Part shown: positions 22,019 through 48,416 of the stretch, in pieces
Layout: the number at the start of each line of letters is the position of its first letter
How positions within the stretch are numbered: position 1 is the first letter of the stretch
Assembly (NCBI GenBank): GCA_023129325.1
Contig: JAGMCI010000017.1
Location: 13,252-77,251, forward strand
DNA length: 64,000 nucleotides
Reading direction: 5' to 3'
Origin: a candidate division WOR-3 bacterium
GTDB taxonomy: Bacteria; Hydrothermota; UBA3073; JACQXS01; JAGMCI01
Position numbers and translations under genes: made by a program
The notes under the pieces: model-generated
The model's input: only the letters and a program-made list of their open reading frames with translations
Told to the model about the DNA's origin: nothing
Databases searched by the model: none

Positions 22019-22028
22019 ACTAATTTCC

Positions 22029-22063: not shown

Positions 22064-22066
22064 TTT

Positions 22067-25361: not shown

Positions 25362-26179
25362 TATTCTTTCTCCCTCTTTTTTAATATAAAGTAACTAAGA
25401 TTACCTAAAATTATGAAAATTATTATTGCTATGTGTCCCGCAGATTGTGCTGTCATCCCAATGATTCCAGCTCCCGGGCATTCAACTAATTTCTCATATT
25501 CTGCTGCCCCCTTTAATCCGCCAATAAGTCCCTCAATCTGTTTGGCTTGAAGATAAGGATAACAATCAGGAGCACAAACAGCAGTACAACCAAGAGTTAT
25601 TTTTTGTCCAAATTGTGCACCAGCAAGTCTAACCCAGTAGTCGCCAGTTGCTCCTGCTTCAAATCCAATAAGTAAAGTAATATCTCCATAATTATGAACT
25701 CCTTTCATTATATCAAGTGAATCAACAGGAGTCCCAGCATAATCAGAAGCAAAAAAATCTCTTATTTCTCTACCTATCCCAAGCATAATAGCTGACATCC
25801 CTGGGCGATAACCAAGATTGACATAATCTTGACCATATTTTTTGTCATATTCTTTAGCTGTTACCATCAGTGCATCTTGCCCTAAAGGAAAACCAAGAGG
25901 CCAATGACACATCATAATGACTTTCAAATTCTTCTTAAAAGCATGCCTCAAGACAGCAATTAACATTGGTTGCAGTTCTGGTTGAGAAGCAGGGTCATAA
26001 TCAACAGAAAAAAGAACGCAAGAACCCGACTCAAGTTTCTCCAGCGCCTTATAAGCTGATTTCACCGGGGCACTAACCCTAATTTCAAGAACTGTTTTTG
26101 TTAAAAATGGTATTATGATACAAAGAACAATAACAATAAAAATAATCCTTCTATCTATATTTGCTATTTTTTTCAACAT
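25361..26179 (-). CDS. bitopic membrane protein with a large soluble domain, uncharacterised (gene 3)
   Basis: N-terminal TM (IIFIVIVLCIIIPFL) and C-terminal TM (IAIIIFIILGNLSYFIL) flank a ~210-aa domain. By eye the domain looks distantly similar to the C-domain of the 26903..28015 product. Confidence 0.55.
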   Translation of the reverse strand: MLKKIANIDRRIIFIVIVLCIIIPFLTKTVLEIRVSAPVKSAYKALEKLESGSCVLFSVDYDPASQPELQPMLIAVLRHAFKKNLKVIMMCHWPLGFPLGQDALMVTAKEYDKKYGQDYVNLGYRPGMSAIMLGIGREIRDFFASDYAGTPVDSLDIMKGVHNYGDITLLIGFEAGATGDYWVRLAGAQFGQKITLGCTAVCAPDCYPYLQAKQIEGLIGGLKGAAEYEKLVECPGAGIIGMTAQSAGHIAIIIFIILGNLSYFILKKREKE

Positions 26180-26183
26180 CTCA

Positions 26184-26213
26184 CTTCCTACTGCTTACTG
26201 CCTACTCCCTACT
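26184..26213. repeat. heptamer array CTTCCTA CTGCTTA CTGCCTA CTCCCTA
   Basis: It is the reverse complement of the GCAGTAG family seen at 20824. Confidence 0.8.
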
Positions 26214-26846
26214 TTATTTTAAGTATGTTCTTTCAATCCCAAGTATAATTCTAAGAGAAGTAGCAATCATTCCAAGAGCAACGCCAATAAGTATTCCCCG
26301 CTTAGCCGCAAGTTGAGGTATATTCATAATCCATTCAGCAATAATAGGTAATTTGTTCCATATCAGATTACCTACTGGGACTCTTCCAATCATAACTAAT
26401 ACACCTGCAATTAGCAATAGTGTGGCTTCAATAGTTCTGGCTCTAAAAGCTCTATAAGCAGCACTTGCAATAAAGAAAGCAAGCAAAGAAAACATAGTAG
26501 CCGAAAGAGGAACAAGAATATTATTATAATACCACATAAAAGGAGTCCCGAGTTCAAACAGCCCTTTATATTTTATACCTGAATAAAAGCCAACAACCAG
26601 AGTCCCAAGCATAGCACCAATTAAAATAACTGAATACCCAAATCCTTGAGTGCGTTTAACAATTCTTCTTGTATGAATTCTGGTTAATGTCATAAGACCT
26701 AAAACCATAGTGAAACCAGCAATAATGGCATACCATTGCAAGAACATAGATTGAAGTCCACCGATTGGGTCATGAGGGATAAAGAAACCAATGATGAGGA
26801 GGAACCCTGTAATAAAGGTAATAGCTAAAGGAACTTCTCTTCTCAT
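26214..26846 (-). CDS. polytopic membrane protein, uncharacterised (gene 2)
   Basis: Five to six hydrophobic helices. Start set to ATG 26846 (MRREVPLAITF) because the upstream MRDSLRKE codons overlap the TCCCGCAC hairpin repeat. Confidence 0.55.
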   Translation of the reverse strand: MRREVPLAITFITGFLLIIGFFIPHDPIGGLQSMFLQWYAIIAGFTMVLGLMTLTRIHTRRIVKRTQGFGYSVILIGAMLGTLVVGFYSGIKYKGLFELGTPFMWYYNNILVPLSATMFSLLAFFIASAAYRAFRARTIEATLLLIAGVLVMIGRVPVGNLIWNKLPIIAEWIMNIPQLAAKRGILIGVALGMIATSLRIILGIERTYLK

Positions 26847-26862
26847 TTCTTTACGAAGGCTA

Positions 26863-26887
26863 TCCCGCACATAAATTATGTGCGGGA
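26863..26887. repeat. solitary TCCCGCAC...GTGCGGGA hairpin
   Basis: TCCCGCACATAAATTATGTGCGGGA, identical to hairpin 1 of leader copy B. It lies between two genes of the membrane operon. Confidence 0.85.
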
Positions 26888-26902
26888 CGGCTACAGACCA
26901 TA

Positions 26903-28015
26903 TTAAAAGCCACTAAACCAGTTAATAAAATTAGAAGCTGATGTTTTTAAAATTCCAAAACTACTTAAGCTTGCTAATAATATTCCGATACTTATAACTA
27001 TGATAATAATAAGTTTAACGAAATCCTCTCCTTTTATGCTTCCGAGCAAAGTTGGTTCTTTTGATAAATATGATGAAGCGGCATACATTTCTTCCCCAAT
27101 AAGAGTGTAATCACATGCGGCAACAAAGAATGGCAGTTGAGTGGTAGCTGGAGTTCCTGCAATTTGGATAGCGCCAATAGAATTTCCTGTTTCAGCTAAC
27201 AATAATGATTCAGCAAAAAAATAGCCTTGCAAGAAGACGGCGCCAGGCTTTTCTCTAAGCATAATACCATTAACTCCAGCGGCATAGCCAAATTGGTCAG
27301 CAGTGAGGTAAAATATTTTTGATTCATTATAAGTATCAGGTCTTCCGGCTTCCATATGAGCTTGTTTAACGACTTCTTGGGCTGCACTCATAACAATTGG
27401 GTCATAACAAGGGACTAACAAAGGGGTTCCATAGGTAGCTGCTCTTTTAGCCACTCTTCCAAGTATTGACAAACTTGCAATTGTGGCGACATCGCTCATA
27501 TCAGAGAGTCCTGTGAGATAAAGAATAGGTTTTCCTGATTCTGTAGCTCTTCCGACGGCATCATCAACAGCCTCAAGCCCTGAAATTTTGCGTATAAAAA
27601 GAGACCCACCGTGTTTAGCTTTCTTTATATACCAAAGCACTAAACCACAAAAAACAATCCCTAAGATTAATGCGTTCCATCTTTTATGGTGGAACCATTG
27701 AGCATAAGATATCACTGGACCAAGTGGTTCAGAATCTGCAAAGTCTGTAGGTGAGACCGCCCTAACTTTATACCAATATTTTTCCCCATCTTGTGTAGAG
27801 TCATCAAATTTATTTAACCCTCTTAAAACGATACCTCTTGAATAATATTCGTGTTTTTTATCTGTAGTTCTAAAAACTTCATAATAAGAAAGTACGGAAT
27901 CATCAGGAGAAAGCTTCCACTTTATAGAGATAGATTTTCCTTTGTCGTTAGGAGTATCAAATACTTGAACATTGAGAGGAGGGGAGAGTTGGAGTAAAAA
28001 AATCAATAAAAACAT
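26903..28015 (-). CDS. membrane protein: signal/FN3-like ectodomain, TM, ~200-aa domain, C-terminal TM; uncharacterised (gene 1)
   Basis: MFLLIFLLQL signal. FN3-like KGKSISIKWKLSPDDSVLSYYEVFRT...YWYKVRAV. TM ALILGIVFCGLVLWYI. C-terminal TM LIIIIVISIGILLASL. Confidence 0.6.
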   Translation of the reverse strand: MFLLIFLLQLSPPLNVQVFDTPNDKGKSISIKWKLSPDDSVLSYYEVFRTTDKKHEYYSRGIVLRGLNKFDDSTQDGEKYWYKVRAVSPTDFADSEPLGPVISYAQWFHHKRWNALILGIVFCGLVLWYIKKAKHGGSLFIRKISGLEAVDDAVGRATESGKPILYLTGLSDMSDVATIASLSILGRVAKRAATYGTPLLVPCYDPIVMSAAQEVVKQAHMEAGRPDTYNESKIFYLTADQFGYAAGVNGIMLREKPGAVFLQGYFFAESLLLAETGNSIGAIQIAGTPATTQLPFFVAACDYTLIGEEMYAASSYLSKEPTLLGSIKGEDFVKLIIIIVISIGILLASLSSFGILKTSASNFINWFSGF

Positions 28016-30745: not shown

Positions 30746-30806
30746 TAATACGCCCCTGCAAGGGCAGAATTTGTGTTTCCTGCCTCGCCTGCGAGTCAAG
30801 GCGGGT

Positions 30807-31862
30807 GTGTTTTTTGTAATACTTAGTATTTCTACACTCCCCGTGCGAGCAAGATGTGAATTTAAGTCTCAGTCGGAGTTGATTGATAGTCCAACAGCGC
30901 ATGTTTCTGATGATTGGTTTGCTCTTGGAATGACCTTTTCTATTACAACTAAAGATGACCCTCACTGGGCTGTTGGTAATGCCTATTTGAAAGTCCAGAT
31001 TCCTGGGAAATTATTCCTTGGATTGTCAATTTTTAATCTTAGAGAAGCCTTGGTAGCATTTGATGCTGGATGGAAGGTAAATAAGGAAACTCAAAATATG
31101 CCAGCTATTATGTTGGGATGTTTATACCTTTCTCCTTATCGCTGGATTTCTCCAGTTGGTCATGATAGTACTGTCGGCTGGGCAGATGACCAAACTTATG
31201 ATACGAAAAGGAATTCAGAACAATTTTCTGCTTTTGTTGTTGCTACAAAAGATTTTGGACCTTATGGACTTTATAATGTTGGAATAGGAAGGGGTTCGCT
31301 GGTTGGCTATGGACCAAGGTCTCATCTCTTTAATACTGATATGTTTATGAGAGACCATCATAACGACGCTGTAGGAATTATTTGGGGTGGCGAGGTAAAT
31401 ATTAGAAAAAATATATTTGGAGTGCTTGACTTTGATGGAAGGGATTTTAATGTTGGAATTAAGATTAAAGGTAAATGGTATCAAATAGGAATCGCCGCAG
31501 CTAAACTTGAACACCGATTAGGAGGTTCTCCAATACTTTATCCTCGTTTTGCAGCAGGGTTTATAATAAATTCACATATATTAAAAAAATTGCCTCCCAA
31601 AATTCCAAAAATTGGAGCTGTTGCCGGAGTAGTACGGGATAAAAATACCCTGCAACCGTTAGTTGCTAAACTCGTGTTTACCGAAACTACCCTTCTTCCA
31701 GTAGCCACTGACAGTAACGGAAAATATACTGTTTCTATTATGCCTGGAACTTACAGGGTGAGGGCTGTTGTTTCAGGATATTATTGGCTTGAGAAAAAAA
31801 TTTATGTCGCTCCTCAAATGACAACAATATGTAACTTTGAATTAACGCCAAAGCCAAAATGA
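30807..31862 (+). CDS. putative outer-membrane protein with C-terminal carboxypeptidase-regulatory-like domain
   Basis: Track ORF 30681..31862. The first ~40 codons are repeat DNA, so I propose the in-frame GTG at 30807 (FFVILSISTLPVRA signal-like). C-terminus GVVRDKNTLQPLVAKLVF...GKYTVSIMPGTYRVRAVVSGY. The start is uncertain. Confidence 0.45.
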   Translation: MFFVILSISTLPVRARCEFKSQSELIDSPTAHVSDDWFALGMTFSITTKDDPHWAVGNAYLKVQIPGKLFLGLSIFNLREALVAFDAGWKVNKETQNMPAIMLGCLYLSPYRWISPVGHDSTVGWADDQTYDTKRNSEQFSAFVVATKDFGPYGLYNVGIGRGSLVGYGPRSHLFNTDMFMRDHHNDAVGIIWGGEVNIRKNIFGVLDFDGRDFNVGIKIKGKWYQIGIAAAKLEHRLGGSPILYPRFAAGFIINSHILKKLPPKIPKIGAVAGVVRDKNTLQPLVAKLVFTETTLLPVATDSNGKYTVSIMPGTYRVRAVVSGYYWLEKKIYVAPQMTTICNFELTPKPK

Positions 31863-31911
31863 AAAATCAAAAATTAAAATGTAAAAATCAAAATCACAAA
31901 TTAAAAATTGA
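31863..31911. repeat. A-rich heptamer array (AAAATCA AAAATTA AAATGTA ...)
   Basis: AAAATTAAAATG[C/T]AAAAATCAAAAT recurs at 37868-37895. A related run lies at 44064-44097. Confidence 0.8.
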
Positions 31912-31926
31912 AGTAAAAGGTTATAG

Positions 31927-31951
31927 GTAGGGGCAACCCTTGCGGTTGCCC
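31927..31951. repeat. GTAGGGGC-family element (variant)
   Basis: GTAGGGGCAACCCTTGCGGTTGCCC. Confidence 0.8.
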
Positions 31952-31957
31952 AAAATA

Positions 31958-32027
31958 AGTAGTTCGGTTACGGCTTTCGTCACCCAAAGCCGATTGACGA
32001 AACGGGTCTCGTCACCGTAACCATTTA
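31958..32027. repeat. same modular family, inverted and module-shuffled, upstream of leuS
   Basis: AGTAGTTCGGTTACGGCTTTCGTCACCC...CCGATTGACGAAACGGGTCTCGTCACCGTAACC. Confidence 0.8.
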
Positions 32028-32053: not shown

Positions 32054-34732
32054 ATGACTTATAATTTTAAAGATATTGAGGCAAGACAACAAAAGTATTG
32101 GGACCATATTGGGCTCCCTGCTCCTCCTAAAGTTCCACACAAAAAATATTATATCTTAGAGATGTATCCTTATCCTTCAGGTGACCTTCATATGGGGCAT
32201 CTTAAAAATTATGTGATAGGAGATACATTAACAAGATATAAACTAATGTGTGGATATGATATACTTCATCCTATAGGCTGGGATGCCTTTGGTCTACCTG
32301 CAGAAGAGTGTGCGATTGAGCAAGGCGTGGACCCGGAAAAATGGACTCTCCATAATATTCAAGTTTCTCGCTCAACATTCCGCCTTATGGGTATGTTATA
32401 TGATTGGGATAGAGAGATTACTACTTGCCTTCCAGATTATTATAAATGGACACAATGGTTATTTCTAAAATTATATGAACATGGCTTGGTATATCGTAAA
32501 AAAGCGTTCCAAAATTGGTGCCCTCACTGTCAGACAGTGCTTGCAAATGAACAAGTTGAGGCTGGAAGATGCTGGAGATGCGAAACCCCAGTGAGGAGAA
32601 AAGAACTAAAACAATGGTTCTTTAAAATTACCCAGTATGCTGAAAGATTGTTGACAGATATAAATAAACTCAACGGCTGGCCTGAACGAGTTAAGACACT
32701 GCAAAAAAATTGGATTGGTAAATCTGAAGGCTTGGAAATAGATTTCTCTTTACCTGCCCCGCTCCGACAAGCGAAGCGGGACGGAGATGGCAAGAAGATA
32801 CCAATATTTACTACAAGACCTGATACAATTTATGGAGTAACATTTATAGCAATTGCTCCAGAAAACGAACTTGCAAAGAGCCTTGGTAGAAACTCAAATT
32901 CAAAAAAAGAAGTCTTAAAATACATTGAAAATTCACTAAAACGAACAGAGATTGAAAGAACTTCATCAACCCGAGTTAAAGATGGAGTGAATACAGGCAA
33001 ATATGTGATTAATCCATTATCAGGTAAAAAAGCCGAAATATGGATTGCTGATTATGTCCTACCCTCCTATGGAACTGGCGTTGTAATGGGTGTCCCTGCT
33101 CACGACCAGAGAGATTTTGAATTTGCAAAGAAATACAAGATACCAATTGAAGTTGTTATTCAACCTAAAGGAGTAGGGGCGCATAGCGGCTCGACTGAGG
33201 CTTCCGTTGAGTCAGCCGAAACGCTCGCGACTCGACTGAGGCTTCCGTTGAGTCAGCCGAAACGCTCGTCGAAGCCCGAAGTCAATACGCCCCTACAAAA
33301 TATAAAACAGGCTTATGCCGAACCAGGAGTGATGATAAATTCGGGTCAGTTTAACGGTCTGGATTCAGTCAAAGGAGTAGAAAAAATAATTAAATTTGTG
33401 ACCCAAAACGGAATTGGAAGACGAAAAGTAAATTATAGGTTAAGAGATTGGTTAATATCACGCCAAAGATATTGGGGAGCACCTATTCCAATGATTCATT
33501 GTAAAAAGTGTGGAGTTGTTCCTGTTCCCTTTCATAACCTTCCAGTATACCTTCCAAAACAGGGAATCGATTTCACTCCAAAGGGAAAGTCTCCTCTTTC
33601 TTCAGTCCCTGATTTTATCAACACTAAGTGCCCAAAGTGCGGAAACCCTGCAACCCGAGACCCCGATACTATGGATACCTTTGTGGACTCTGCTTGGTAT
33701 GAGATTAGATACTTAGACCCCAAAAATGAACAAGCTCTTGTCTCAAAAAAGGAAGCCGAAAAATGGCTCCCAGTTGATCAATATATTGGAGGAGTGGAAT
33801 ATGCAACTACCCATCTCCTTTATTTTCGGTTTATCACAAAGTTTCTCTATGATATTGGAGTCCTCCCAGTAGATGAGCCAGTTGAAAATCTCTTTAATCA
33901 GGGGTTGATAAAAGATGAAACCGGGCAAAAGATGTCGAAATCAAAAGGCAATGCTGTCCCAGTAGGCCCATTTCTTAAAGAATGGGGGGCAGATATAGCA
34001 AGACTTACCATTTTATTCCTGGGACCTCCTTCTAAAGATGGAATATGGTCAGTAAAGGGCATACAAGGAGTAAGTAGATTTCTAAATAGAGTATATAAGC
34101 TTGTAAATGAAAATGCTTCTGTAGGGGCGTATGGCGACTCGACTGAGGCTTCCGTTGAGTCAGCCGAAACGCTCGCGACTCGACTGAGGCTTCCGTTGAG
34201 TCAGCCGAAACGCTCGTCGAAGTCCGAAGTCAATATGCCCCTACAAGAGGAGGAAAATTTTAAAAATACACCACTTTATAGGAAGCTTAATCTTACAATA
34301 TCAAAAGTGGAAGAGGACCTCAACTCTTTTGGATATAATACTGCTATAGCATCGCTTATGGAATTTACAAATGAACTTTATAAAACTCAAGAAAGAGGTT
34401 CCATTTTTGGGTACTCTTTAGGAGTGCTAATAAAACTACTCGCCCCATTTGCTCCCCATCTGTCTGAAGAGCTATGGCATGAGCTCGCCCATACGGGTTC
34501 AGTATTTAAATCCTGCTGGCCTGGTTGGAAAGAGGTAGAGGCAAAAAAAGTCACATTAGTGATTGAAATTAATGGAAAGCCAAGAGCTACAGTTGAGATT
34601 CCTTATGATTTAGGAGAGGAAGAAGTGAAAAAAGTTTGCTTGCATAATACTCGTATAGAAGGAAGAATTAAAGGAAAAAATATTAAAAAAATTATATTTG
34701 TTCAAAACAAGCTTATTAATTTTGTAATGTAA
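32054..34732 (+). CDS. leuS: leucine--tRNA ligase
   Basis: HIGH motif PYPSGDLHMGHLKNY, KMSKS motif QKMSKSKGN, and TTRPDTIYGVTF at the editing-domain entry. The ORF is intact despite three in-frame repeat insertions. Confidence 0.95.
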   Translation: MTYNFKDIEARQQKYWDHIGLPAPPKVPHKKYYILEMYPYPSGDLHMGHLKNYVIGDTLTRYKLMCGYDILHPIGWDAFGLPAEECAIEQGVDPEKWTLHNIQVSRSTFRLMGMLYDWDREITTCLPDYYKWTQWLFLKLYEHGLVYRKKAFQNWCPHCQTVLANEQVEAGRCWRCETPVRRKELKQWFFKITQYAERLLTDINKLNGWPERVKTLQKNWIGKSEGLEIDFSLPAPLRQAKRDGDGKKIPIFTTRPDTIYGVTFIAIAPENELAKSLGRNSNSKKEVLKYIENSLKRTEIERTSSTRVKDGVNTGKYVINPLSGKKAEIWIADYVLPSYGTGVVMGVPAHDQRDFEFAKKYKIPIEVVIQPKGVGAHSGSTEASVESAETLATRLRLPLSQPKRSSKPEVNTPLQNIKQAYAEPGVMINSGQFNGLDSVKGVEKIIKFVTQNGIGRRKVNYRLRDWLISRQRYWGAPIPMIHCKKCGVVPVPFHNLPVYLPKQGIDFTPKGKSPLSSVPDFINTKCPKCGNPATRDPDTMDTFVDSAWYEIRYLDPKNEQALVSKKEAEKWLPVDQYIGGVEYATTHLLYFRFITKFLYDIGVLPVDEPVENLFNQGLIKDETGQKMSKSKGNAVPVGPFLKEWGADIARLTILFLGPPSKDGIWSVKGIQGVSRFLNRVYKLVNENASVGAYGDSTEASVESAETLATRLRLPLSQPKRSSKSEVNMPLQEEENFKNTPLYRKLNLTISKVEEDLNSFGYNTAIASLMEFTNELYKTQERGSIFGYSLGVLIKLLAPFAPHLSEELWHELAHTGSVFKSCWPGWKEVEAKKVTLVIEINGKPRATVEIPYDLGEEEVKKVCLHNTRIEGRIKGKNIKKIIFVQNKLINFVM
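32751..32794. repeat. same family, in frame in leuS
   Basis: TACCTGCCCCGCTCCGACAAGCGAAGCGGGACGGAG encodes LPAPLRQAKRDGDGK. Confidence 0.85.
33173..33296 (+). repeat. 124-nt GTAGGGGCG...CGCCCCTAC element in frame in leuS (copy 1)
   Basis: Inverted termini GTAGGGGCGCAT / AATACGCCCCTAC. Internal 41-nt unit (CTCGACTGAGGCTTCCGTTGAGTCAGCCGAAACGCTCG plus 3 nt) present twice. Confidence 0.9.
34121..34244 (+). repeat. 124-nt GTAGGGGCG...GCCCCTAC element in frame in leuS (copy 2)
   Basis: By my alignment it differs from copy 1 at 5 of 124 positions. Same orientation and same reading frame. Confidence 0.9.
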
Positions 34733-34771: not shown

Positions 34772-35851
34772 ATGGAGTTTGTGGTAAATAAGATTGAAGA
34801 TTTAGATAAAAATTTACCCTCCAATGTGAAAAGAGTTAGAATAAACCTTCCTAATCTTGACTCAGCTGATATTGTTAATTTTGTTTCTAAGTACTTATCT
34901 TGTCTGTCTGCCCGACGTCCTGCAGGCGGGCAGGCGGGCAGGCGGGCAGGCGGGCGAATTAAAGCAAATATATCTGAACAGTCCCGACTTCAGTCGGGAT
35001 TAAGAGAGGACAGGACAATTCAGGAAGTGTGGTTAAAAAGTGATAAGTTTCCTATACTTTTAAAAAATGGGTATTTAATATTCTTCTCCAAAGGCGGGTC
35101 CCTGTCCGACAGATGGCTCGCCTCGCTGAAGCTTTGGCGAAGCGGGCAGGCGGGCGCCTCTGGCGGAAAAAACCACTCCAATGAGGTTAAGACTGGTGGG
35201 AAAAGAGGATTAGATATTTTTATAAGTAGTTTGATGCTTGGCATTTCTTTTCCTATTTTGCTTGTGAGTTCTATTCTTATAAAACTTACTTCTAAGGGGC
35301 CAGTCTTGTTCCGTCAATCCCGGATTGGCGTTAATGGAAAGTTATTTAATTTTTATAAATTTAGGACGATGCATTGTTCTAATCCATTAACCGATAGAGA
35401 TATACATCGCAATTATATAAAAAAATCTATACTTGGTAGCAATTCAGGACAATCTGTCTCTCAAACTCTTGATAAAACCAGAGCGGCAAACAAGAGAGTT
35501 TACAAATTGACCAATGACCCCAGAATAACCCCCGTTGGGAGATGGCTGAGAAAACTATCAATAGATGAACTTCCACAATTGATAAATGTCTTAAAAGGTG
35601 ATATGAGTCTCATAGGACCTCGGCCTCCAATACCTTACGAAGTTAAATTATACAGTGATTGGCACTATGTTAGGCTAATTGCCCGTCCTGGCATAACCGG
35701 GCTCTGGCAAGTTATGGGGAGAAGTCTTATTCCCTTTAATCAGATGGTATTACTTGACTTTTACTATGCAGTAAATCAATCATTTTGGTTAGACTTGAGA
35801 ATATTTTTACGCACTATCCCAATGGTCTTGTCATTGAAAGGAGCGTATTAA
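34772..35851 (+). CDS. bacterial sugar transferase (polyprenyl-phosphate sugar-1-phosphate transferase family) with repeat-rich N-terminal extension
   Basis: KRGLDIFISSLMLGISFPILLVSSILIKLTSKGPVLFRQSRIG...FYKFRTM...DPRITPVGRWLRKLSIDELPQLINVLKGDMSLIGPRPP. Confidence 0.8.
   Translation: MEFVVNKIEDLDKNLPSNVKRVRINLPNLDSADIVNFVSKYLSCLSARRPAGGQAGRRAGGRIKANISEQSRLQSGLREDRTIQEVWLKSDKFPILLKNGYLIFFSKGGSLSDRWLASLKLWRSGQAGASGGKNHSNEVKTGGKRGLDIFISSLMLGISFPILLVSSILIKLTSKGPVLFRQSRIGVNGKLFNFYKFRTMHCSNPLTDRDIHRNYIKKSILGSNSGQSVSQTLDKTRAANKRVYKLTNDPRITPVGRWLRKLSIDELPQLINVLKGDMSLIGPRPPIPYEVKLYSDWHYVRLIARPGITGLWQVMGRSLIPFNQMVLLDFYYAVNQSFWLDLRIFLRTIPMVLSLKGAY
34908..34954. repeat. CTGCCCGACGTCCTGCAGGCGGG element followed by (CAGGCGGG)x4 perfect octamer tandem, in frame in the sugar transferase
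   Basis: Four perfect octamer units at 34923-34954. It encodes SARRPAGGQAGRRAGGR. Confidence 0.85.
34982..34999. repeat. 7-bp-stem hairpin in frame in the sugar transferase
   Basis: TCCCGAC-TTCA-GTCGGGA. Confidence 0.6.
35117..35156. repeat. GCCCGCTTCGCC / CAGCGAGGCGAG-family element in frame in the sugar transferase
   Basis: CTCGCCTCGCTGAAGCTTTGGCGAAGCGGGCAGGCGGGCG encodes ASLKLWRSGQAGA. Confidence 0.8.
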
Positions 35852-36523
35852 ATGGCAGTGAGGATTGGAAAATCAGTAAAAATATATCCGGGAGTGAAAT
35901 TAGGGAACGGTTGTGTAATTTATGATTTTGTTGTTCTTGGTTTTCCACCACGAAATAAAATGGTAGGGGCGTATAGCGATACGTCCCTACAGATTGGGGA
36001 AAATGCTATTATACGACCATTTACCACTATATATGCGGGTAACCGTATAGGTGACAACTTCCAGAGCGGACAAGGAACAAGTATTAGAGAGGATAATATA
36101 ATTGGCAATAATGTGAGCGTAGGTAGCAATACTACACTTGAATTCGGAAACCGTATTGGTTCAGGGACAAGAATTCACTCTTTGTGCTTCCTTGAGCTTG
36201 TTAATGTAGGGGAAAATGTTTTTATTGGTCCAGGTACAGTTTTTCTTGATGACCCTCATCCTATGAATTGTCCCAGATATCGTGAATGTCTGGGAGGTGC
36301 AAAAGTTAAGAAACTTGTTAAGATTGGTGGAGGATGTATTATCCTTCCAGGAATTACTATTGGAGAAGCTGCTCTTATAGGAGCTGGAACTTGTGTGACT
36401 AAAGATGTTCCAAAAGGAGTAGTTGTTGTTGGACATCCAGGCAAGTTTGTTAAGAAGATTGAAGAACTTAAGTGCTATCCAGGGTTTTTTAAACGTCCTT
36501 ACCTTTGGAAGCCATATATATAA
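35852..36523 (+). CDS. left-handed beta-helix (hexapeptide repeat) sugar N-acetyltransferase
   Basis: Imperfect hexapeptide repeats run through most of the protein (IGDNFQSGQGTSIREDNIIGNNVSVGSNTTLE...). The ATG directly follows the upstream stop. Confidence 0.75.
   Translation: MAVRIGKSVKIYPGVKLGNGCVIYDFVVLGFPPRNKMVGAYSDTSLQIGENAIIRPFTTIYAGNRIGDNFQSGQGTSIREDNIIGNNVSVGSNTTLEFGNRIGSGTRIHSLCFLELVNVGENVFIGPGTVFLDDPHPMNCPRYRECLGGAKVKKLVKIGGGCIILPGITIGEAALIGAGTCVTKDVPKGVVVVGHPGKFVKKIEELKCYPGFFKRPYLWKPYI
35963..35990. repeat. minimal GTAGGGGC element (termini only) in frame in the acetyltransferase gene
   Basis: GTAGGGGCGTAT-AGCG-ATACGTCCCTAC encodes VGAYSDTSLQ. Confidence 0.8.
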
Positions 36524-36556: not shown

Positions 36557-36622
36557 TACCTGCCCCGCTCCGACAAGCGAAGCGGGACGGAGACGGCAGG
36601 CAGGTATTTTTTTCTTTTTTTT
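36557..36622 (+). terminator. Rho-independent terminator built from a CCGCTCCGACAAGCGAAGCGGGACGG-family repeat copy
   Basis: Outer stem TACCTGCC / GGCAGGTA encloses the repeat core and is followed by TTTTTTTCTTTTTTTT. It lies 34 nt after the acetyltransferase stop. Confidence 0.7.
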
Positions 36623-37855: not shown

Positions 37856-37863
37856 TTTTTAAT

Positions 37864-37996
37864 ATCAAAAATTAAAATGCAAAAATCAAAATTATTGTAG
37901 GCACGATTTCAAATCGCACAGGCAATTTATGATTAAGATTAAAAAAGTTTTGCTTTTTAATATGTGATTTTGATATTTGATTTTTGATATTTAATA
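37864..37996. repeat. inverted ATCAAAA / TTTTGAT heptamer arrays flanking the TGTAGGCAC hairpin
   Basis: Left array at 37864-37891 and right array at 37948-37996. Confidence 0.75.
37896..37924. repeat. TGTAGGCAC-family hairpin (short)
   Basis: TGTAGGCACGATTTCAAATCGCACAGGCA, flanked by inverted ATCAAAA / TTTTGAT arrays. Confidence 0.8.
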
Positions 37997-38006: not shown

Positions 38007-39428
38007 ATGCTCTCAACTATAAAGGCTCAACTTAAGCCCTTTATGCCATTGTTACTTAAAGCAAAGGAACCATGGCTTGTTGGGGGTGCAATTAGAGATG
38101 CTATCATTACTTCCCACTTCTCACTTCCTACTTCCCACTTCAAAGATTTTGATTTTGCCATCAAAGGTTCAGGAATAGAATTTGCACGCTGGTTTGCACA
38201 TAAGATTTGTGCCGGAGACACATCCGCCTCCGGCATAAAGGGAAGCTTTGTTTTACTTGATTCTGAAAATGACGAAGCAAGAGTCGTGGTAAAAATCAGA
38301 AATCAGAAGTCAGAAGTCAGAAATCTTACTTTTGATTTTAATGGAATGAAGTCTATTGAGGAAGACCTTTCCCGGCGCGATTTTAGACTAAATGCCATGG
38401 CAGCAAAATTACCTGAATTTAAAATACTTGACCCATTTAAGGGCATAGAGGATATAAAGAAAAAGAGACTCAGAATGGTTTCTGAAAAATGCTTTAAAGA
38501 AGATGCACTGAGAATACTTAGAGGATTTAGATTAGAAGCAACACTTGGCTTTAAAATAACTCCTAAAACTCTTGAAGTCATGAGACTTCATAAAAATTTA
38601 CTCTTCAAAATTGCACCTGAAAGAATAAGAGAAGAGCTTTTCCTTCTTCTTAAAGCTAAGAATTGTTACAGAACCTTACGACATATGGCCAGACTTGAAA
38701 TACTTGATGTCATAATTCCGGAGACCACTCCTATGAGAGAGGTACCATCCCGATTTATCGGGAGTGGCAACTTGCTTGACCATTCAATGTTAACTGTTAA
38801 AAAGGTTGAGGACTTAGAAGCATCTGAGGACTTTAGCCCTTGGTTTAGTGAATATCTTAGAAAAAAATTACCTGTCCTAAAGTTAGCTGCTTTATTGCAC
38901 GATATTGGTAAACCATATTGCTATACTAAGAATGAATCAGGAAAAGTGCACTTTTATGGTCATGAAAAAAAGGGGATAGAACTTCTCGTAGGAATTCGTG
39001 ACCGTCTTAGATTGAGCCATAAGGAATTTAAGACCCTTCAGTTGCTTATTCATTATCATATGCGACCTCATCTTTTAGCCAGAGAGCGTTATCCAACTGA
39101 CAAAGCAATATGGAAATTTATAAGAGATGGCGGTGAAGAAGCGCAAGGCATTCTTTTGCTCGCTTATGCGGATGCCTTGGCATCTGGAAGAAGAGGAAGG
39201 AAAGGGCTTCTTAAATTACTTGATAGAGGGATAAAGATGCAAGCAGAATTCAATCGTCCTAAATTCAAACCTTTATTAACAGGTAATGATTTGATCTCTC
39301 TTGGACTCAAGCCAGGTCCCAAGTTTAAGGAAATTCTACAGATAGTAGGAGAGATGCAAGTGAGTGGCGAACTCCATACTACCAATCAAGCCCTACAATT
39401 TGTTAAGAAAAACTTCCTCGCCTCGTAA
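38007..39428 (+). CDS. cca: CCA-adding enzyme / poly(A) polymerase family nucleotidyltransferase with HD domain
   Basis: LVGGAIRD...DFDFAI (GGxxRD / DxD head domain), RRDFRLNAMA, and HD region LHDIGKP...YGHEKKG. Confidence 0.8.
   Translation: MLSTIKAQLKPFMPLLLKAKEPWLVGGAIRDAIITSHFSLPTSHFKDFDFAIKGSGIEFARWFAHKICAGDTSASGIKGSFVLLDSENDEARVVVKIRNQKSEVRNLTFDFNGMKSIEEDLSRRDFRLNAMAAKLPEFKILDPFKGIEDIKKKRLRMVSEKCFKEDALRILRGFRLEATLGFKITPKTLEVMRLHKNLLFKIAPERIREELFLLLKAKNCYRTLRHMARLEILDVIIPETTPMREVPSRFIGSGNLLDHSMLTVKKVEDLEASEDFSPWFSEYLRKKLPVLKLAALLHDIGKPYCYTKNESGKVHFYGHEKKGIELLVGIRDRLRLSHKEFKTLQLLIHYHMRPHLLARERYPTDKAIWKFIRDGGEEAQGILLLAYADALASGRRGRKGLLKLLDRGIKMQAEFNRPKFKPLLTGNDLISLGLKPGPKFKEILQIVGEMQVSGELHTTNQALQFVKKNFLAS
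38110..38141 (+). repeat. ACTTC-family heptamers in frame in cca between GGxxRD and DxD
   Basis: TTCCCACTTCTCACTTCCTACTTCCCACTTC encodes TSHFSLPTSHF. Confidence 0.85.
38293..38324 (+). repeat. (AATCAGA/AGTCAGA)x4 heptamers in frame in cca
   Basis: It encodes IRNQKSEVRN. Confidence 0.85.
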
Positions 39429-40208: not shown

Positions 40209-40809
40209 TTCCTGCCCGACGGACGATAGGCGGGAGAGACTCAGCGAAAGCCTGGCTCCTCTTTATAGCCTGTTTTAAGATAGTAGCCGAACCCTTTAGA
40301 GTTCGTGATTTATGTCGTTTAGCCTCATCTTTAATCAGCCGTATAAAGTTTAAAGCAATAAGTGTAGTTTCGCCTAATTTAAGTTTGCGATGTGTGAGCC
40401 AATCCAGTGTATGGGCTAACTCGAGTGAGCCAGTGGATGCAATAAAGATAAGCGAAAAGGCAGTGGCTAATAAAGCTCGGGTTCCAAGAATCAGACTTTT
40501 ATATAGTCCCTCATAACTTATCCCGCCAAGCAAAGCGGGACGGATTCCCGGGACAACTATTTCCCCCTTGATAGCCCAGAGTGGAAAACCGTAAATTATC
40601 AGCAGGAATGGTAAAAACCATACAAATCGGTGTATAAAAATCTTCTTATTTTTTAGCAAAATGAATTCTGTTAAAAAGATGACAAAAAGAATAGCAAAGA
40701 CCTGCAAGTTTTTAGCAATTCCGCAGCTAACAAGGAGTAATATAGTAAGAATAAGCTTTAATTTTGCCCCGTCAGATAGTAAACATCTAACGGGGCGGGG
40801 CATAAGCAT
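40195..40809 (-). CDS. EcfT/CbiQ-like energy-coupling-factor transporter transmembrane protein (short, possibly degenerate)
   Basis: Multi-TM protein with LIALNFIRLIKDEAKRHKSR, resembling the ECF-T coupling-helix region. ecfT directly upstream of truA is a gene order I recall from Firmicutes. No ecfA is nearby. The C-terminus is encoded by a repeat. Confidence 0.4.
   Translation of the reverse strand: MLMPRPVRCLLSDGAKLKLILTILLLVSCGIAKNLQVFAILFVIFLTEFILLKNKKIFIHRFVWFLPFLLIIYGFPLWAIKGEIVVPGIRPALLGGISYEGLYKSLILGTRALLATAFSLIFIASTGSLELAHTLDWLTHRKLKLGETTLIALNFIRLIKDEAKRHKSRTLKGSATILKQAIKRSQAFAESLPPIVRRAGNAKH
40211..40235. repeat. related CCTGCCCGAC...GGCGGGA element at the ecfT-like C-terminus / truA start overlap
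   Basis: CCTGCCCGACGGACGATAGGCGGGA encodes PPIVRRAGN. Confidence 0.6.
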
Positions 40810-42485: not shown

Positions 42486-43343
42486 TTAAACTGAATTTTC
42501 TCTGTTTACCTCAATGAACTTTATTATTTCCTTAATTATCCAATCTGGGGTTGAAGTTCCGGCTGTTACACCGATACTTGATTTTGTTTTGAACCACTGG
42601 GGTTTAAGTTCAGCCTTTGTTTCTATATGATAAGTTTCACAACCTTGGTCTCGACTTAGTTCAGCGAGTCGCGTTGTATTGGCTGAATTATGACCTCCAA
42701 CGACAATCATTAAATCTACCTTTTTAGCAAGTTCAATTGTATGTTGTTGTCGTAAACTTACGACCTCACAAATTGTATTATAGATATGTAATTCTTTAGT
42801 GGTTTGTAGGAGATGAGATACCACTTCTGCGAATGTAGATGAGGCTAAAGTTGTTTGTGCGATAACGCCTATTTTATCAAACTTTCCACTTTCCACTTTC
42901 CACTTCCCACTTCCTGTTGGGTCTATGACTTGAGCCCGATTCTGAGTATGTCCGACTATGCTTTGAACTTCAGGGTGGTCAGGCTTACCGACCACAAAAG
43001 CTTGGTATTCGGCATCACAGAGAGCCTTAGCATAATTTTGTGCCTTTTTTACAAATGGACAGGTTGCGTCTATTATTTTAAACCCGAGTTTCAGGGCTTC
43101 ATCAATTACTGAATCTGGTGCACCATGGGACCTTATAATTAGTTTACCTATTTTAACCTTAGATAGTGATTTAATAGGACATAGTCCTAAAGTCTCAAGT
43201 TGCTTAACTACTTGTGGGTTGTGGATTACAGGGCCGTAAGAATAGACAGGCAATTTAGATTCTGTAAGAGTTTTATTGGCTATATCTATTGACCTCTTTA
43301 CTCCGAAACAAAAACCAGAATTTGGTATCTCAAATACTTTCAT
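42486..43343 (-). CDS. ispH: 4-hydroxy-3-methylbut-2-enyl diphosphate reductase
   Basis: GFCFGVKRSI, ATCPFVKK, AQTT and GGHNSANTTRLAE are IspH/LytB hallmarks including the Fe-S cysteines. Confidence 0.9.
   Translation of the reverse strand: MKVFEIPNSGFCFGVKRSIDIANKTLTESKLPVYSYGPVIHNPQVVKQLETLGLCPIKSLSKVKIGKLIIRSHGAPDSVIDEALKLGFKIIDATCPFVKKAQNYAKALCDAEYQAFVVGKPDHPEVQSIVGHTQNRAQVIDPTGSGKWKVESGKFDKIGVIAQTTLASSTFAEVVSHLLQTTKELHIYNTICEVVSLRQQHTIELAKKVDLMIVVGGHNSANTTRLAELSRDQGCETYHIETKAELKPQWFKTKSSIGVTAGTSTPDWIIKEIIKFIEVNRENSV
42882..42914. repeat. ACTTC-family heptamers in frame in ispH
   Basis: CCACTTT CCACTTT CCACTTC CCACTTC encodes GSGKWKVESGK. Confidence 0.85.
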
Positions 43344-44068
43344 TAGTTACCCACCTTCCTGCTGTCTCCGTCCCGCTTCGCTTGTCGGAGCAGGGGGCAA
43401 GGCAGGTTTGTTACTGACAGGTTTTTGATTCTACGCTCTACTTCTTTAGAAATTATGGCACGAGCTTCTCTGGGTAACTTCGCTTGCCTGCCTGCAGACA
43501 GGTCTCTGAGAAGAGAGTCATAAATAACAGGTTTCCCGAATCGAACACATACTTTTTCTTTCCGAATAAATTGTTTAATGAGTGGAGTATTAGTCCCTTT
43601 TACAAGAGTTGGTACCACAGGCACCTCGCATCTTAAAGCCAACCAGGCTACACCGGGATGAAATTCTAAAAAATGTCCTGATAGACTGCGTGTGCCCTCA
43701 GGGAAAAACATAATAGCTAAACCATTTTTTAATAATTTCTCTGTGTGCTTGAGCGCCGTTTTGTTCAGTCCTTTTGTGTTAACTTCATAAGCATTAAAAG
43801 CCTTGATTAACCAAGTATAAAATTTATTGATCACAAATAGTTCTTGTTTAGTAAAAAGATAACACTCCCTGAACCACACAGCTGCCCCAACCAATGGGGG
43901 GTCAAAGTTTGATAAATGGTTAGGTGCGATAATGACACCTCCTTTTTTAGGAATGTTTTCCCATCCCTCAATTTTAAAGCCAAATAATAATTTCCAGGTC
44001 CAATAAATTATCCTTATTGCTATCCTGTATCTTAACTTCATCACACCAAATTTAGAATTAAATATCAA
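43343..44068 (-). CDS. plsC: 1-acyl-sn-glycerol-3-phosphate acyltransferase
   Basis: HX4D motif APNHLSNFDPP and FPEGTRS. The start could instead be the internal MKLRYRI. The C-terminal ~25 aa are repeat-encoded. Confidence 0.8.
   Translation of the reverse strand: MIFNSKFGVMKLRYRIAIRIIYWTWKLLFGFKIEGWENIPKKGGVIIAPNHLSNFDPPLVGAAVWFRECYLFTKQELFVINKFYTWLIKAFNAYEVNTKGLNKTALKHTEKLLKNGLAIMFFPEGTRSLSGHFLEFHPGVAWLALRCEVPVVPTLVKGTNTPLIKQFIRKEKVCVRFGKPVIYDSLLRDLSAGRQAKLPREARAIISKEVERRIKNLSVTNLPCPLLRQAKRDGDSRKVGN
43358..43406. repeat. same family, forming the C-terminus of plsC
   Basis: The reverse complement of the core lies at 43366-43391. It encodes PCPLLRQAKRDGDSRKVGN*. Confidence 0.85.
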
Positions 44069-44224
44069 AAATCAAAATTACATATTAAAATGCAAAAATT
44101 ACAACAACAGACTGAAGACCGAAGACATAAGACTGACGACAAAAAAGTCTACGGTCTCTGGTCTTAAGTCTATAGCCTTTCTTTTTAATTTTTGATTTGT
44201 CATTTTGATATTTGATTTTTAATG
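44064..44224. repeat. nested inverted heptamer arrays between cmk and plsC
   Basis: The outer pair is ATCAAAA (44064-97) / TTTTGAT (44183-224; it encodes the cmk C-terminus). The inner pair is AGACNNA x4 (44109-40) / NNNGTCT (44147-71), separated by AAAAAA. Confidence 0.8.
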
Positions 44225-44880: not shown

Positions 44881-45836
44881 ATTTTAAAATGGTCAAATCC
44901 CTTCACAGGAATCTCGTTTCCCTCCTCATCTATAATTTTTACTTCCCACTTCCCACTTCCCACTCCGTGGTGAAGGTCGTGGCGAACCACTTCCCACTTT
45001 TCTATTATCTCTCCTACTTCTGTAAATTCAACCCTTTTTTTAGCCTGCGTAGTATAAATTTTGGGAATTGTAAAAAGTAATTCAAATTCCTCACCTCCAT
45101 TTAAGGCACAAGAGATTGGCGAAAGAGAAAATTTACTTGTTATCTTTCTTGTTTCATTATTTATAGGGAGATTATTTCTCCATATTTTTGCCCCTACTTT
45201 TGATTCATCAAGAATATGAGAAAGGTCAATTGTGAAGCCGTCGGAAATATCTATCATTGATGTAACATAATTACTGAGCTCTTTTCCTTCCTTAATCCTG
45301 GGTAATGGATTAAGATGCTGTCTTATCAAAGGACTTTTAATTCCATTTTGAAGTGCTAAAAGTCCAGCAAAAGAGTTTCCAAGCTTGCCTGTAACACAAA
45401 TTAAATCCCCAATTTTAGCACCCGACCTTTTTATTATTTTCTTTACTTCACCAATAACACAGATAGTTATTGAAATAATTTTTGATTTTGTAAGTTCGCC
45501 ACCAATTATTTCCATATTAAACAATTTTGCTATTTCTCTTACACCACGATAAAAATCTTTTATAAACTTAAGGTCGCCAGTTGGGAGGCCAACTGAAATA
45601 AGAGCATATCTTGGTATCCCACCGCAAGCAGCAATGTCAGACATTGAAGCCGAAAGGCTCTTGTAGCCAACATCATAAGGTGTGAAATAAGCAGTATCAA
45701 AATGAACTTTCTCTATAAAAGAATCAATTGTCACAAGTGGTATAAGTCCTGGAGAAATATTAAAAGCTTCAGCATCGTCACCAATTCTTGGGAATACTTT
45801 TCTTATTTCTTTTATGAGTTCAAATTCACTTGTCAT
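44877..45836 (-). CDS. thiL: thiamine-monophosphate kinase
   Basis: AIR-synthase-related fold motifs: GDDAEAF..., DSFIEKVHF, MSDIAACGG and DISDGF. Confidence 0.8.
   Translation of the reverse strand: MTSEFELIKEIRKVFPRIGDDAEAFNISPGLIPLVTIDSFIEKVHFDTAYFTPYDVGYKSLSASMSDIAACGGIPRYALISVGLPTGDLKFIKDFYRGVREIAKLFNMEIIGGELTKSKIISITICVIGEVKKIIKRSGAKIGDLICVTGKLGNSFAGLLALQNGIKSPLIRQHLNPLPRIKEGKELSNYVTSMIDISDGFTIDLSHILDESKVGAKIWRNNLPINNETRKITSKFSLSPISCALNGGEEFELLFTIPKIYTTQAKKRVEFTEVGEIIEKWEVVRHDLHHGVGSGKWEVKIIDEEGNEIPVKGFDHFKI
44941..44959. repeat. (ACTTCCC)x2.7 in frame in thiL
   Basis: It encodes SGKWEVK. It abuts the 31-nt CCACTCCGTGG element. Confidence 0.8.
44960..44990. repeat. CCACTCCGTGGTGAAGGTCGTGGYGAACCAC element in frame in thiL
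   Basis: Read antisense it gives VVRHDLHHGVG. It is adjacent to an ACTTCCC heptamer run. Confidence 0.85.
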
Positions 45837-47079: not shown

Positions 47080-48416
47080 TATACCTCCTGCCGTCCGTTC
47101 TTATCAACTCGACTTGTTGATTTAGAACAGCGAGCATCCCGCACCGTATGGTGCGGGAATTCATTCTTAGTTGTATCTATTAGTAAAGATTTTACTCCAC
47201 AAGGTTTGCCATTATTGATGTAAATACGCGGGACCCTTGGACATATATTGGTAAGTATTTCATAACTAATAGTTCCTGCAAGTTTAGCAACTTCATCGCA
47301 ACTTATACCATTGCCAATAAGAGTAACTTTGTCACCTATTTTTACATCAGGAATATGAGTTACATCAACCATAGTAAGGTCCATACACACAGCCCCAACA
47401 ACTTTAGCCCGTTTACTCTTTATAACAACAATTCCCTTATTTGAAAGGCTCCGTGGATAGCCATCTCCATAACCAACAGATAAGGTGGCAATTTTGCTTG
47501 ATTCATTAGTAATGTAGGTTCTGCCATAAGAAATTGGAGTCCCCGGAGGAACTAACTTTAACTGGCAAACCCGGGTATAAAGATTTAAAATTGGTTTTAC
47601 CTCAATTGAGCTTGTGTGCACTGATGGATATAAGCCATAGAGCAAAAGTCCTGGTCTTATCATATTAAAATAAGAATCGGGAAATCCAAGTATAGCCGCA
47701 GAGTTCGCAGTATGAACCAAAGGCACTTGAATTCCCTTATTTTGTAATTCCTGAATTAAAGCATTAAATTTTTCAAGTTGATTAAGTGTAAAATTTTTAT
47801 CTCCCCCGCCTGCAGGATGTCGGGCAGGTCTTTCTGTTTCAGCAAAATGAGTAAACAGACCGTCTAACTTAAGATTCTTTAATTCAAGCACCTTAAGGAT
47901 AAAATCTATGGCTTCAGTGTAAGGGGTCCCAGTCCTGCCCATTCCAGTATCAACCTCAATATTGATTTTGATAATTTTACCCGCTTCTTTGGCACGCTTA
48001 TTAAGTTCAATAGCAAAAGGATAATATGTAACTGTTGGTATAAAGTCATTAGATACCTGCCCGCTCGCCTCGCTCTCGCTCCGGCGAAGCGGGCTGCTCT
48101 GCTTTGGCAGGCGGGTAAGTTTTGGCACATCGCTTACTAAAATGGGTGAAAGAATTACTATTGGTAAACCTATTTCGGCTAACTCACAAGCCTCATCAAT
48201 TGAGGCTACTCCCAACATATCAATTCCTTCCTCTTTTAATGTTTTTGATATTTCTCGTGCCCCATGTCCATAAGCGGCAGCTTTAACAGCTGCTAAAATC
48301 CTCACCTTACTATTTGATTTGTTAATAGTTTGATAGCTTGAAAGCCTTTCTTTTAGAGCTTTTACATTAGACTTTAACTTATCTAAGTCCACTACTGCCC
48401 AAGTTCTGCCATCCAT
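47079..48416 (-). CDS. alr: alanine racemase
   Basis: PLP-lysine motif AAVKAAAYGHG, HFA and YGDGYPR. Two in-frame repeat insertions, plus a C-terminal extension read through the downstream leader element. Confidence 0.85.
   Translation of the reverse strand: MDGRTWAVVDLDKLKSNVKALKERLSSYQTINKSNSKVRILAAVKAAAYGHGAREISKTLKEEGIDMLGVASIDEACELAEIGLPIVILSPILVSDVPKLTRLPKQSSPLRRSESEASGQVSNDFIPTVTYYPFAIELNKRAKEAGKIIKINIEVDTGMGRTGTPYTEAIDFILKVLELKNLKLDGLFTHFAETERPARHPAGGGDKNFTLNQLEKFNALIQELQNKGIQVPLVHTANSAAILGFPDSYFNMIRPGLLLYGLYPSVHTSSIEVKPILNLYTRVCQLKLVPPGTPISYGRTYITNESSKIATLSVGYGDGYPRSLSNKGIVVIKSKRAKVVGAVCMDLTMVDVTHIPDVKIGDKVTLIGNGISCDEVAKLAGTISYEILTNICPRVPRIYINNGKPCGVKSLLIDTTKNEFPHHTVRDARCSKSTSRVDKNGRQEV
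47080..47158 (-). repeat. two-hairpin leader element plus SD, copy C, upstream of the DUF1844 gene (also read as the alr C-terminus)
   Basis: It shares ACCTCCTGCCGTCCGTTCTT and GCGAGCATCCCGCAC with copy B. The loops differ. Confidence 0.85.
47805..47827. repeat. reverse-complement copy of CTGCCCGACRTCCTGCAGGCGGG in frame in alr
   Basis: One mismatch to 34908-34930. It encodes RPARHPAGGG. Confidence 0.8.
48056..48115. repeat. same family, in frame in alr
   Basis: CCTGCCCGCTCGCCTCGCTCTCGCTCCGGCGAAGCGGGCTG...GGCAGGCGGG encodes LPKQSSPLRRSESEASGQV. Confidence 0.8.

Follow-up and report, generated by a model that had tools for sequence, protein, structure and literature searches.

The 64,000-nucleotide stretch of contig JAGMCI010000017.1 of a candidate division WOR-3 bacterium analysed here (positions 13,252 to 77,251, forward strand; hereafter the window) contains six copies of a very small tagged hairpin, three of which lie within the reading frames of leuS and a hexapeptide acetyltransferase gene. 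These copies are probably repetitive extragenic palindromes (REPs) that carry the tetranucleotide tag GTAG and are mobilised by a REP-associated tyrosine transposase (RAYT) encoded elsewhere in the genome. The observations that underlie this explanation are the tag with its adjoining hairpin, compensatory changes in the stems, insertion relative to orthologous genes, a composite form present twice, survival confined to the single open frame, and the association of the same hairpin type with RAYT genes in other genomes. A preliminary description of the window had listed six copies, all of which are present, and a possible partial seventh copy at about 30747, which is a genuine solo right arm:

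21116-21140, plus strand: singly tagged REP, GTAGGGGCAGACCTTGCGTCTGCCT (GTAG, stem GGGCAGAC, loop CTTGC, stem GTCTGCCT)
21988-22012, plus strand: singly tagged REP, identical in sequence to the copy at 21116-21140 (GTAGGGGCAGACCTTGCGTCTGCCT)
31927-31951, plus strand: singly tagged REP, GTAGGGGCAACCCTTGCGGTTGCCC (stem GGGCAACC / GGTTGCCC, loop CTTGC)
33173-33298, plus strand: composite element in leuS, 126 nt, codons VGAHSG...NTPLQ, repeat family D7
34121-34246, plus strand: second composite element in leuS, 126 nt, codons VGAYGD...NMPLQ
35963-35992, plus strand: doubly tagged REP hairpin in the hexapeptide acetyltransferase gene, consisting of a 28-mer (35963-35990) and AG
30747-30761, plus strand: solo right-arm fragment, AATACGCCCCTGCAA, which matches the right end of the leuS elements (AATACGCCCCTACAA) at 14 of 15 positions

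Each unit is built from the tag GTAG, a GC-rich stem of 8 bp (GGGC-NNNN) and a loop of 4-5 nt; in all six copies the stem begins with GGGC and follows the tag directly. The octamer GTAGGGGC occurs nine times exactly on the two strands of the window (0.78 expected; nine or more in none of 100 shuffles), and when one mismatch is permitted there are 26 occurrences versus 23 expected, an absence of excess that indicates a sharply defined family. GTAG-tagged hairpins of any kind number 10, versus 2.0 expected. The density of copies is 6-7 in 64 kb, and no further copies of GTAGGGGC are found in the 9 kb fetched beyond the window. The ninth octamer (45190, minus strand), which is not followed by a REP-type hairpin, may be due to chance or decay. 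All six GTAGGGGC tags have plus-strand orientation, whichever side of the GC-skew switch they lie on (the cumulative GC skew has its minimum at ~26000-28000, where gene orientation flips from the minus to the plus strand). The solo right arm at 30747-30761, for which no convincing left arm could be found, adjoins other hairpins in what is likely the 5' leader of a gene starting near 30681.

The copies are of two kinds. The three intergenic copies have GTAG at one end only, and their two cores are separated by compensatory changes (GGGCAGAC/GTCTGCC(T) versus GGGCAACC/GGTTGCCC); the short forms had been credited with three different cores, but two of the three copies are identical. The three coding copies each consist of one hairpin tagged on both strands (GTAG...CTAC), so that the conserved inverted ends formerly ascribed to the whole family are a property of these three copies and not of the intergenic ones. 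The 28-nt form reduced to its termini in the acetyltransferase gene (GTAG-GGGCGTAT-AGCG-ATACGTCC-CTAC, including a G·T pair) had been described accurately: with the following AG it makes up ten in-frame codons (VGAYSDTSLQ), placed in a variable loop of the protein. Because AA or AG follows CTAC, the units borne by genes are 126 nt (42 codons) and 30 nt (10 codons) in length. Thus, the 124 nt given earlier for the leuS forms is correct for both when counted from tag to tag (33173-33296 and 34121-34244), but the repeated unit is 126 nt. An assembly artefact is unlikely, because the exact LeuRS protein is present on three contigs on record and the adjacent 13.2 kb of the contig that includes the window (DAOWLA010000007.1 of metagenome-assembled genome (MAG) GCA_030643605.1) are matched with 100% identity by a publicly available Logan assembly of a read run.

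The two composite elements in leuS have the same arms as the acetyltransferase hairpin (GTAGGGGCG(C/T)AT ... AT(A/G)(C/T)GCCCCTAC), set ~100 nt apart by a second sequence. The first composite is laid out as follows:

33173-33184: left arm
33185-33188: remnant of the loop
33189-33284: nested element
33285-33296: right arm, followed by AA

The nested 96 nt of the first composite comprise a 41-nt unit (33191-33231) and a tandem repeat of it (33232-33268); the corresponding cargo of the second composite is at 34137-34232. Five differences separate the two 126-mers, four in the arms and loop remnant and one in the tail of the cargo. The cargo is an independent second small element. Copies of it were sought in the window and in 120 hairpin-bearing loci of other genomes (described below), and only the two in leuS were found, but a 22-mer taken from it is present in eight metagenome contigs (L127-L134), which come from Hainich groundwater and from SDBU01 and where an element of about 50 nt (consensus approximately GGCTCGRCTGAGGCTTCCGTTGAGTCAGCCGAAACGCTCGCCGAAGTCG) stands alone, without GTAG arms, within long open reading frames (ORFs) of organisms of 50-56% GC. 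In four of the eight contigs, the reading frame across the element is that of leuS and encodes (S/T)EASVESAE (peptide (S/T)EASVESAE(TLAE)). The cargo element by itself has no significant fold. In one of these contigs (L130) it adjoins the catalytic region of an integrase-like ORF. A hammerhead ribozyme was considered as the identity of the leuS cargo and was dropped because Rfam gave no match in 33100-34300 even at E values up to 1. The 126-mer is therefore a doubly tagged REP hairpin with an unrelated element nested in its loop, subsequently duplicated in part. Since the same composite occupies two unrelated sites of leuS, it arose a single time and was thereafter copied as one piece, with GTAG and CTAC as its limits. 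The "variable cargo" of the preliminary description therefore has two causes: the interiors do vary, but through compensatory stem variants in the short forms and through a nested second element in the long ones.

The same hairpin type is widespread. A scan of species-representative genomes with the pattern GTAGGGGCANNCCTTGCGNNTGCC yielded at least 120 stretches (loci) of ~8 kb each, 827 kb altogether. The loci listed, among which the window's own MAG does not figure, span at least 12 phyla and include complete chromosomes and cultured strains; among them are Chloroflexota, Bacteroidota, Desulfobacterota (including Geobacter), Caldimicrobium, Bacillota, Planctomycetota, Acidobacteriota, Cloacimonadota, Nitrospirota, Chlorobiales, Bdellovibrionales, Gammaproteobacteria and FCPU426. 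The 120 listed loci contain 324 GTAGGGGC octamers, 255 of which are directly followed by a hairpin, with a stem of exactly 8 bp in 230 cases; 43 different stems are represented, all of them complementary. When the 146 matches to the search pattern itself are excluded, a hairpin is still found at 109 of the remaining 178 octamers. The exact 25-mer of the copy at 31927-31951 is found again in many phyla, and the window stems GGGCGTAT and GGGCGCAT recur in listed loci of Planctomycetota, Bacteroidales, Deltaproteobacteria and Ruminococcus (for example GTAGGGGCGTATTGCAATACGCCCCTA in L088). Doubly tagged single hairpins of 28-29 nt occur at seven positions in four loci (14 when both strands are counted), for example GTAGGGGCACGTTGCAACGTGCCCCTAC. 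Units of the form GTAGGGGC...GCCCCTAC range from 28-29 nt through a mode of ~54-60 nt, made up by many two-hairpin dimers, to ~134 nt, which indicates that the size series belongs to the family as a whole. In six loci (L011, L034, L050, L081, L091 and L121), many GTAGGGGC hairpins are followed by tandem arrays with units of 7-18 nt copied from the 3' half of the hairpin (for example CTTGCGGGTGCC and CCGTCTGCC, each repeated n times), a pattern that points to slippage at the hairpin or to its being nicked repeatedly.

Four of the 120 repeat-selected loci (L086, L009, L121 and L095) contain a RAYT-like gene beside the hairpins or invaded by them, and on the assumption of one to a few RAYT genes per genome the number expected by chance would be, as a rough estimate, well under one. 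In a Desulfuromonadaceae genome (L086), a 183-residue ORF matches the NCBIfam model of the REP-associated tyrosine transposase (NF047646) with 71.9 bits, and with 81.5 bits (cutoff 80) once the protein is stripped of the nine residues that an in-frame REP adds to it; the stop codon of the ORF directly adjoins a GTAG...CTAC pair. A RAYT gene of Bacteroidetes (L009) holds many in-frame hairpins and is flanked by more, whereas the other two loci contain partial RAYT genes. A MAG of the Fibrobacteres-Chlorobi-Bacteroidetes (FCB) group with 39% GC (L136), fetched by RAYT homology, has a GTAGGGGT hairpin inside its RAYT gene, where GTAGGGGTATCC...GGATACCC lies in frame after the HUH motif. The identity of the L086 protein as a RAYT is based on NCBIfam, Pfam and the source names of its homologues (6751 at E values up to 1e-10, several named "REP element-mobilizing transposase RayT"); a single-sequence search against solved structures gave no hit. 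Its homologues are 92% identical in Desulfuromonadales, ~60% in Geobacteraceae, ~52% in Brocadiales, 43% in the FCB group and ~40% in Chloroflexus, and since identity falls with taxonomic distance, this RAYT looks old rather than recently transferred. In the RAYT genes of three phyla, in-frame REPs are situated just after the HUH motif (HGII...; L086 1022-1050, L009 ~2320-2500 and L136 3256-3285), which would reflect either a loop that tolerates insertions or, in this clade of RAYTs, a feature that serves self-targeting or regulation.

The gene-borne copies are additions relative to orthologous proteins. LeuRS is 892 residues long here and 797-821 residues in nine aligned relatives, and both 42-residue blocks are missing from all nine as well as from the Thermus thermophilus enzyme; both are in regions of variable length. 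For the leuS sites a close relative is lacking, since even the nearest LeuRS sequences share only ~57-63% identity. The 126-mer is open in only one of its six reading frames (+1), for which reason the two blocks share a frame, and the 30-mer is open in three of six; the common VGA...PLQ frame is what purifying selection would leave, and implies that the blocks are translated and not removed. A structure prediction for LeuRS from a 10-sequence alignment (mean pLDDT 56, with values below 50 in the inserts and in much of the rest of the protein) says nothing about exposure of the inserts, owing to this low confidence throughout. Hairpins that lengthen conserved proteins in this way (LeuRS of 892 rather than ~800-820 residues) matter for annotation, alignment and phylogeny of proteins from MAGs.

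The acetyltransferase site can be compared with closer homologues. One of them (L125, 73% identical) has an ordinary loop (GKKSGELKLT) without a palindrome, whereas the other (L124, 80% identical) has a 28-nt palindrome at the same place, GGAAGGGTTCAAAATTTTGACCCCCTAC, with the same length and right tag as the window copy but a different core, three base pairs having been swapped compensatorily; an extra 24-nt hairpin lies just upstream of it. The event in the acetyltransferase gene thus predates the split from L124, and filled and empty sites do exist among relatives, but not as a recent polymorphism. Even with the 10-codon element, the loop exceeds that of the empty relative by only 9 nt, which implies that the event replaced ~21 nt of the native loop and was not a clean insertion. 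A rival explanation is spread without any dedicated enzyme: in the course of replication or repair, short palindromes rich in GC would undergo template switching or gene conversion with one another, and a hairpin or a composite would thereby be copied to another site. The hairpin arms offer microhomology for such a process, a replacement is what the acetyltransferase loop resembles, the nearest relative has a palindrome of different core at the same site, and no RAYT is seen locally; however, arms of 12 bases are short for recombination, and such a process would explain neither the invariant unpaired GTAG of the singly tagged copies nor the RAYT genes found with the hairpins in four of 120 loci and in L136. 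Enzyme-free spread is accordingly considered unlikely.

In the preferred explanation, in which the copies are REPs moved by a RAYT, a putative Y1 HUH transposase of the TnpA(REP) type, with its gene at another place in the genome, would bind the folded single-stranded hairpin via GTAG, cut at a nearby CT or CA, and rejoin the DNA without duplicating the target. Both CT and CA are present in CCCCTACA(A/G). Copies that land in genes would persist only if they keep the frame, introduce no stop codon and occupy a loop of variable length, the outcome being a protein with 10 or 42 added residues. This mechanism is extrapolated from the published enzymes of E. coli, Stenotrophomonas and Marinomonas, for which the role of GTAG and cleavage at CT or CA have been described (PMC8266576). 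In the definition given there, a REP is a palindrome 20-50 nt long with a conserved GTAG immediately 5' of it, and all six copies conform to this.

The preliminary description had compared the family to miniature inverted-repeat transposable elements (MITEs). A small, non-autonomous and apparently mobile family, with bounded units, a size series and varying interiors, is indeed present, but it does not consist of MITEs in the strict sense. A classical MITE would be a deletion derivative of a DDE-type insertion sequence (IS), moved by cut-and-paste via terminal inverted repeats (GTAGGGGCGYAT). Inverted ends of 12 bp in three copies, and a size series (28 and 124 nt) with differing interiors, are what that explanation predicts. 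Against it, no direct repeat that could be a target-site duplication surrounds any of the three doubly tagged copies, three of the six copies have the motif at one end only, and the supposed terminus is the GTAG tag plus the base of an 8-bp stem, a hairpin known in 43 stem variants elsewhere. Furthermore, the interior of the long form is a separate element and not a transposase remnant, and the window encodes no transposase, as the preliminary description had already observed. A classical MITE is therefore very unlikely. That description had also named TnpA(REP) among the candidate partners, and the evidence points there, the same hairpin type being found beside RAYT genes elsewhere; the empty and filled sites that it proposed to look for are found among the relatives of LeuRS and of the acetyltransferase (L125 versus L124), and a consistent terminal structure is seen across the 120 loci listed from other genomes.

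The intergenic copies are located near exbD and the TonB genes and upstream of leuS. The copy at 21116-21140 (DNA fold -7.4 kcal/mol, z -3.6) lies between a TonB gene and a gene for a TonB-dependent receptor; that at 21988-22012, assigned to repeat family D15 (97% over 37 nt), is downstream of exbD and extends into the TonB ORF at its 5' end as called. The copy at 31927-31951 opens a hairpin cluster upstream of leuS. Positions between co-directional genes are common for REPs, and together with the compensatory stem changes and the known co-option of REPs (PMC3733652) they would suit immobile hairpins retained by the host for a regulatory role, as terminators, mRNA stabilisers or protein-binding sites. 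On the other hand, a scan around the intergenic copies (20900-22100) detects no terminator-like sites and no T-tail, and the only Rfam match in the whole window at gathering score is one tRNA. Three copies are translated inside genes, near-identical composites occupy two unrelated sites in leuS, and hairpins of this type occur in unrelated contexts across at least 12 phyla. Retention as regulatory hairpins is thus highly improbable.

Spread through RNA, with the hairpin copied via a transcript and reinserted, as is reportedly proposed for small dispersed repeats of cyanobacteria, merits hardly any credence. Pairs of the G-U type are tolerated (compare the G·T pair of the 28-mer), and there are nested insertions and nearby tandem repeats of heptamers, features that are said to characterise the cyanobacterial repeats also. 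No reverse transcriptase is evident in the gene tables of the window, however, and the association with RAYT genes offers a simpler path at the level of DNA.

Several points weigh against mobilisation by a RAYT as well. No RAYT-like ORF is found in the window by phmmer with the L086 protein at E values up to 1, nor any by tblastn with RAYT and IS608 TnpA sequences, and no transposase Pfam is listed in the gene tables of window positions 1596-64000 and the 9 kb beyond; the cognate RAYT of the host genome is a prediction. The acetyltransferase site, as described above, is not a clean insertion. Three of the six copies are intragenic, which is atypical of REPs, elements expected to be mostly extragenic, and the window has no two-hairpin dimers of the GTAGGGGC family, its organisation being one of doubly tagged single hairpins and of mosaic clusters with other hairpin families. 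Finally, transposition of a REP in vivo has not been shown for any system (PMC8266576). In this context, the finding of one REP composite, recognisable passenger included, at two places in a single essential gene speaks for movement of the GTAG...CTAC unit as a discrete entity. More tentatively, the GTAG...CTAC hairpin with its 96-nt passenger at two leuS sites might mean that a REP/RAYT system can move cargo in the manner of single-stranded DNA mini-transposons. In addition, the GTAG-tagged hairpin with the GGGC 8-bp stem might constitute, together with its clade of RAYTs, a single and very widespread lineage (at least 12 phyla) for which insertion into coding sequence is routine, also at the recurrent position just behind the HUH motif of the RAYT gene itself; this broader proposal is possible but doubtful.

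Other repeats are abundant in the window. A second GTAG-tagged family (GTAG-TTCGGTTACGG...CCGTAACC; 31958-32022 on the plus strand, 22973-23008 and 21224-21270) accompanies the GTAGGGGC hairpins in mosaic clusters similar to bacterial interspersed mosaic elements (BIMEs), upstream of leuS and around exbB-exbD-tonB, and small hairpins of the form TCCGCCT(A/C/G)AGGCGGA are present in the same intergenic clusters (~21093, 23031, 30721, 32029 and 55160). A third family of GC-rich hairpins, in which arms CCTGCC...GGCAGG enclose the core CCGACAAGCGAAGCGGGACGGA, is found at 24103-24152, 32751-32800, 36557-36606, 40523-40544 and 43358-43407 (minus strand); one copy is in frame in leuS (LPAPLRQAK) and missing from all relatives, and another lies between the acetyltransferase gene and the next gene, where the relative L125 has 8 nt. 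Blocks of GGCGGGCAGG-type motifs are found at 34904-34961, 35093-35170, 40210, 47800, 48052-48115 and 49542; the sugar transferase gene at 34772-35851 contains GGCGGGCAGG-rich blocks, among them a tandem run of (CGGGCAGG)n, that are missing from its L125 orthologue (299 residues versus 359 here). Many intergenic spaces are filled by tandem arrays of heptamers (ACTTCCC-like, TAATTGN and AAAATCA), similar to short tandem repeats known from cyanobacteria and from large sulfur bacteria:

21260-21391, 26169-26208, 38109-38148, 42883-42919 and 44936-45014: heptamer arrays
17763-17824 and 22017-22064: heptamer arrays
31850-31912, 37862-37904 and 44048-44117: heptamer arrays

Among known systems, palindrome-associated elements derived from IS200/IS605 and MITEs such as Nezha, Correia/NEMIS and ERIC are likewise small, non-autonomous and hairpin-forming, and the IS200/IS605 type moves as single-stranded DNA without target duplication; the hallmarks of MITEs (long terminal inverted repeats, duplicated target sites and an identifiable parent IS) are, by contrast, not seen in the window. 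The small dispersed repeats (SDR) of cyanobacteria, reportedly described by Elhai et al. in 2008, are said to be hairpins of 21-27 nt with compensatory variants and nested insertions, among heptamer tandem repeats, for which an RNA route was proposed. The likeness lies in very small size, compensatory variants, nesting and heptamer arrays; the difference is that a link to RAYT genes is supported here. The Rickettsia palindromic elements (RPE) are similar as palindromic selfish DNA inserted in frame in essential genes, where they add surface peptides and leave the protein intact, but their sequence family and host are unrelated to those of the window; RPE-4 and RPE-6 have a CGTC tag instead of GTAG and no associated transposase (PMC3733652).

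The closest system is that of the GTAG REPs, BIMEs and REP doublets (REPINs) with their RAYT genes, together termed REPtrons (Nunvar 2010, PMC2817692; Bertels and Rainey 2011, PMC3116915; Di Nocera 2013, PMC3733652; Corneloup 2021, PMC8266576). Di Nocera et al. described 24 GTAG families of Proteobacteria, Cyanobacteria, Chloroflexi and the Planctomycetes-Verrucomicrobia-Chlamydiae (PVC) group, with complementary stem variants, variable loops, and dimers that have GTAG at their outer ends ("HH"), as well as a minority of intragenic REPs, some in frame in tRNA synthetase genes and encoding peptides such as VGAGLPA (PMC3733652). The GGGC-stem type may or may not coincide with one of these 24 families, and string matching of the exact hairpin sequences in the literature retrieved no relevant paper. 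The window elements resemble REPtrons in having GTAG 5' of a short GC-rich palindrome, subfamilies that arise by complementary stem changes, GTAG at the outer ends, no target duplications, and in-frame intragenic copies, including copies in a tRNA synthetase gene, with peptides that begin VGA; the same hairpin type also flanks RAYT genes in other genomes. They differ in that half of the copies are intragenic, that no RAYT has been seen so far in the host genome (window and 9 kb beyond), that the host belongs to an uncultured low-GC FCB-group or WOR-3-like lineage, that a single hairpin carries both tags, one on each strand, where REPtrons have two hairpins in inverted arrangement, and that a 96-nt foreign element occupies the loop of a composite found twice. 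The kind of element and its intragenic habit have been described before, so that knowledge is refined and not overturned; what is new in comparison with the known REPtrons is the host lineage, the doubly tagged single hairpin in genes, the nested composite present twice in leuS, and the breadth of the GGGC-stem type across phyla.

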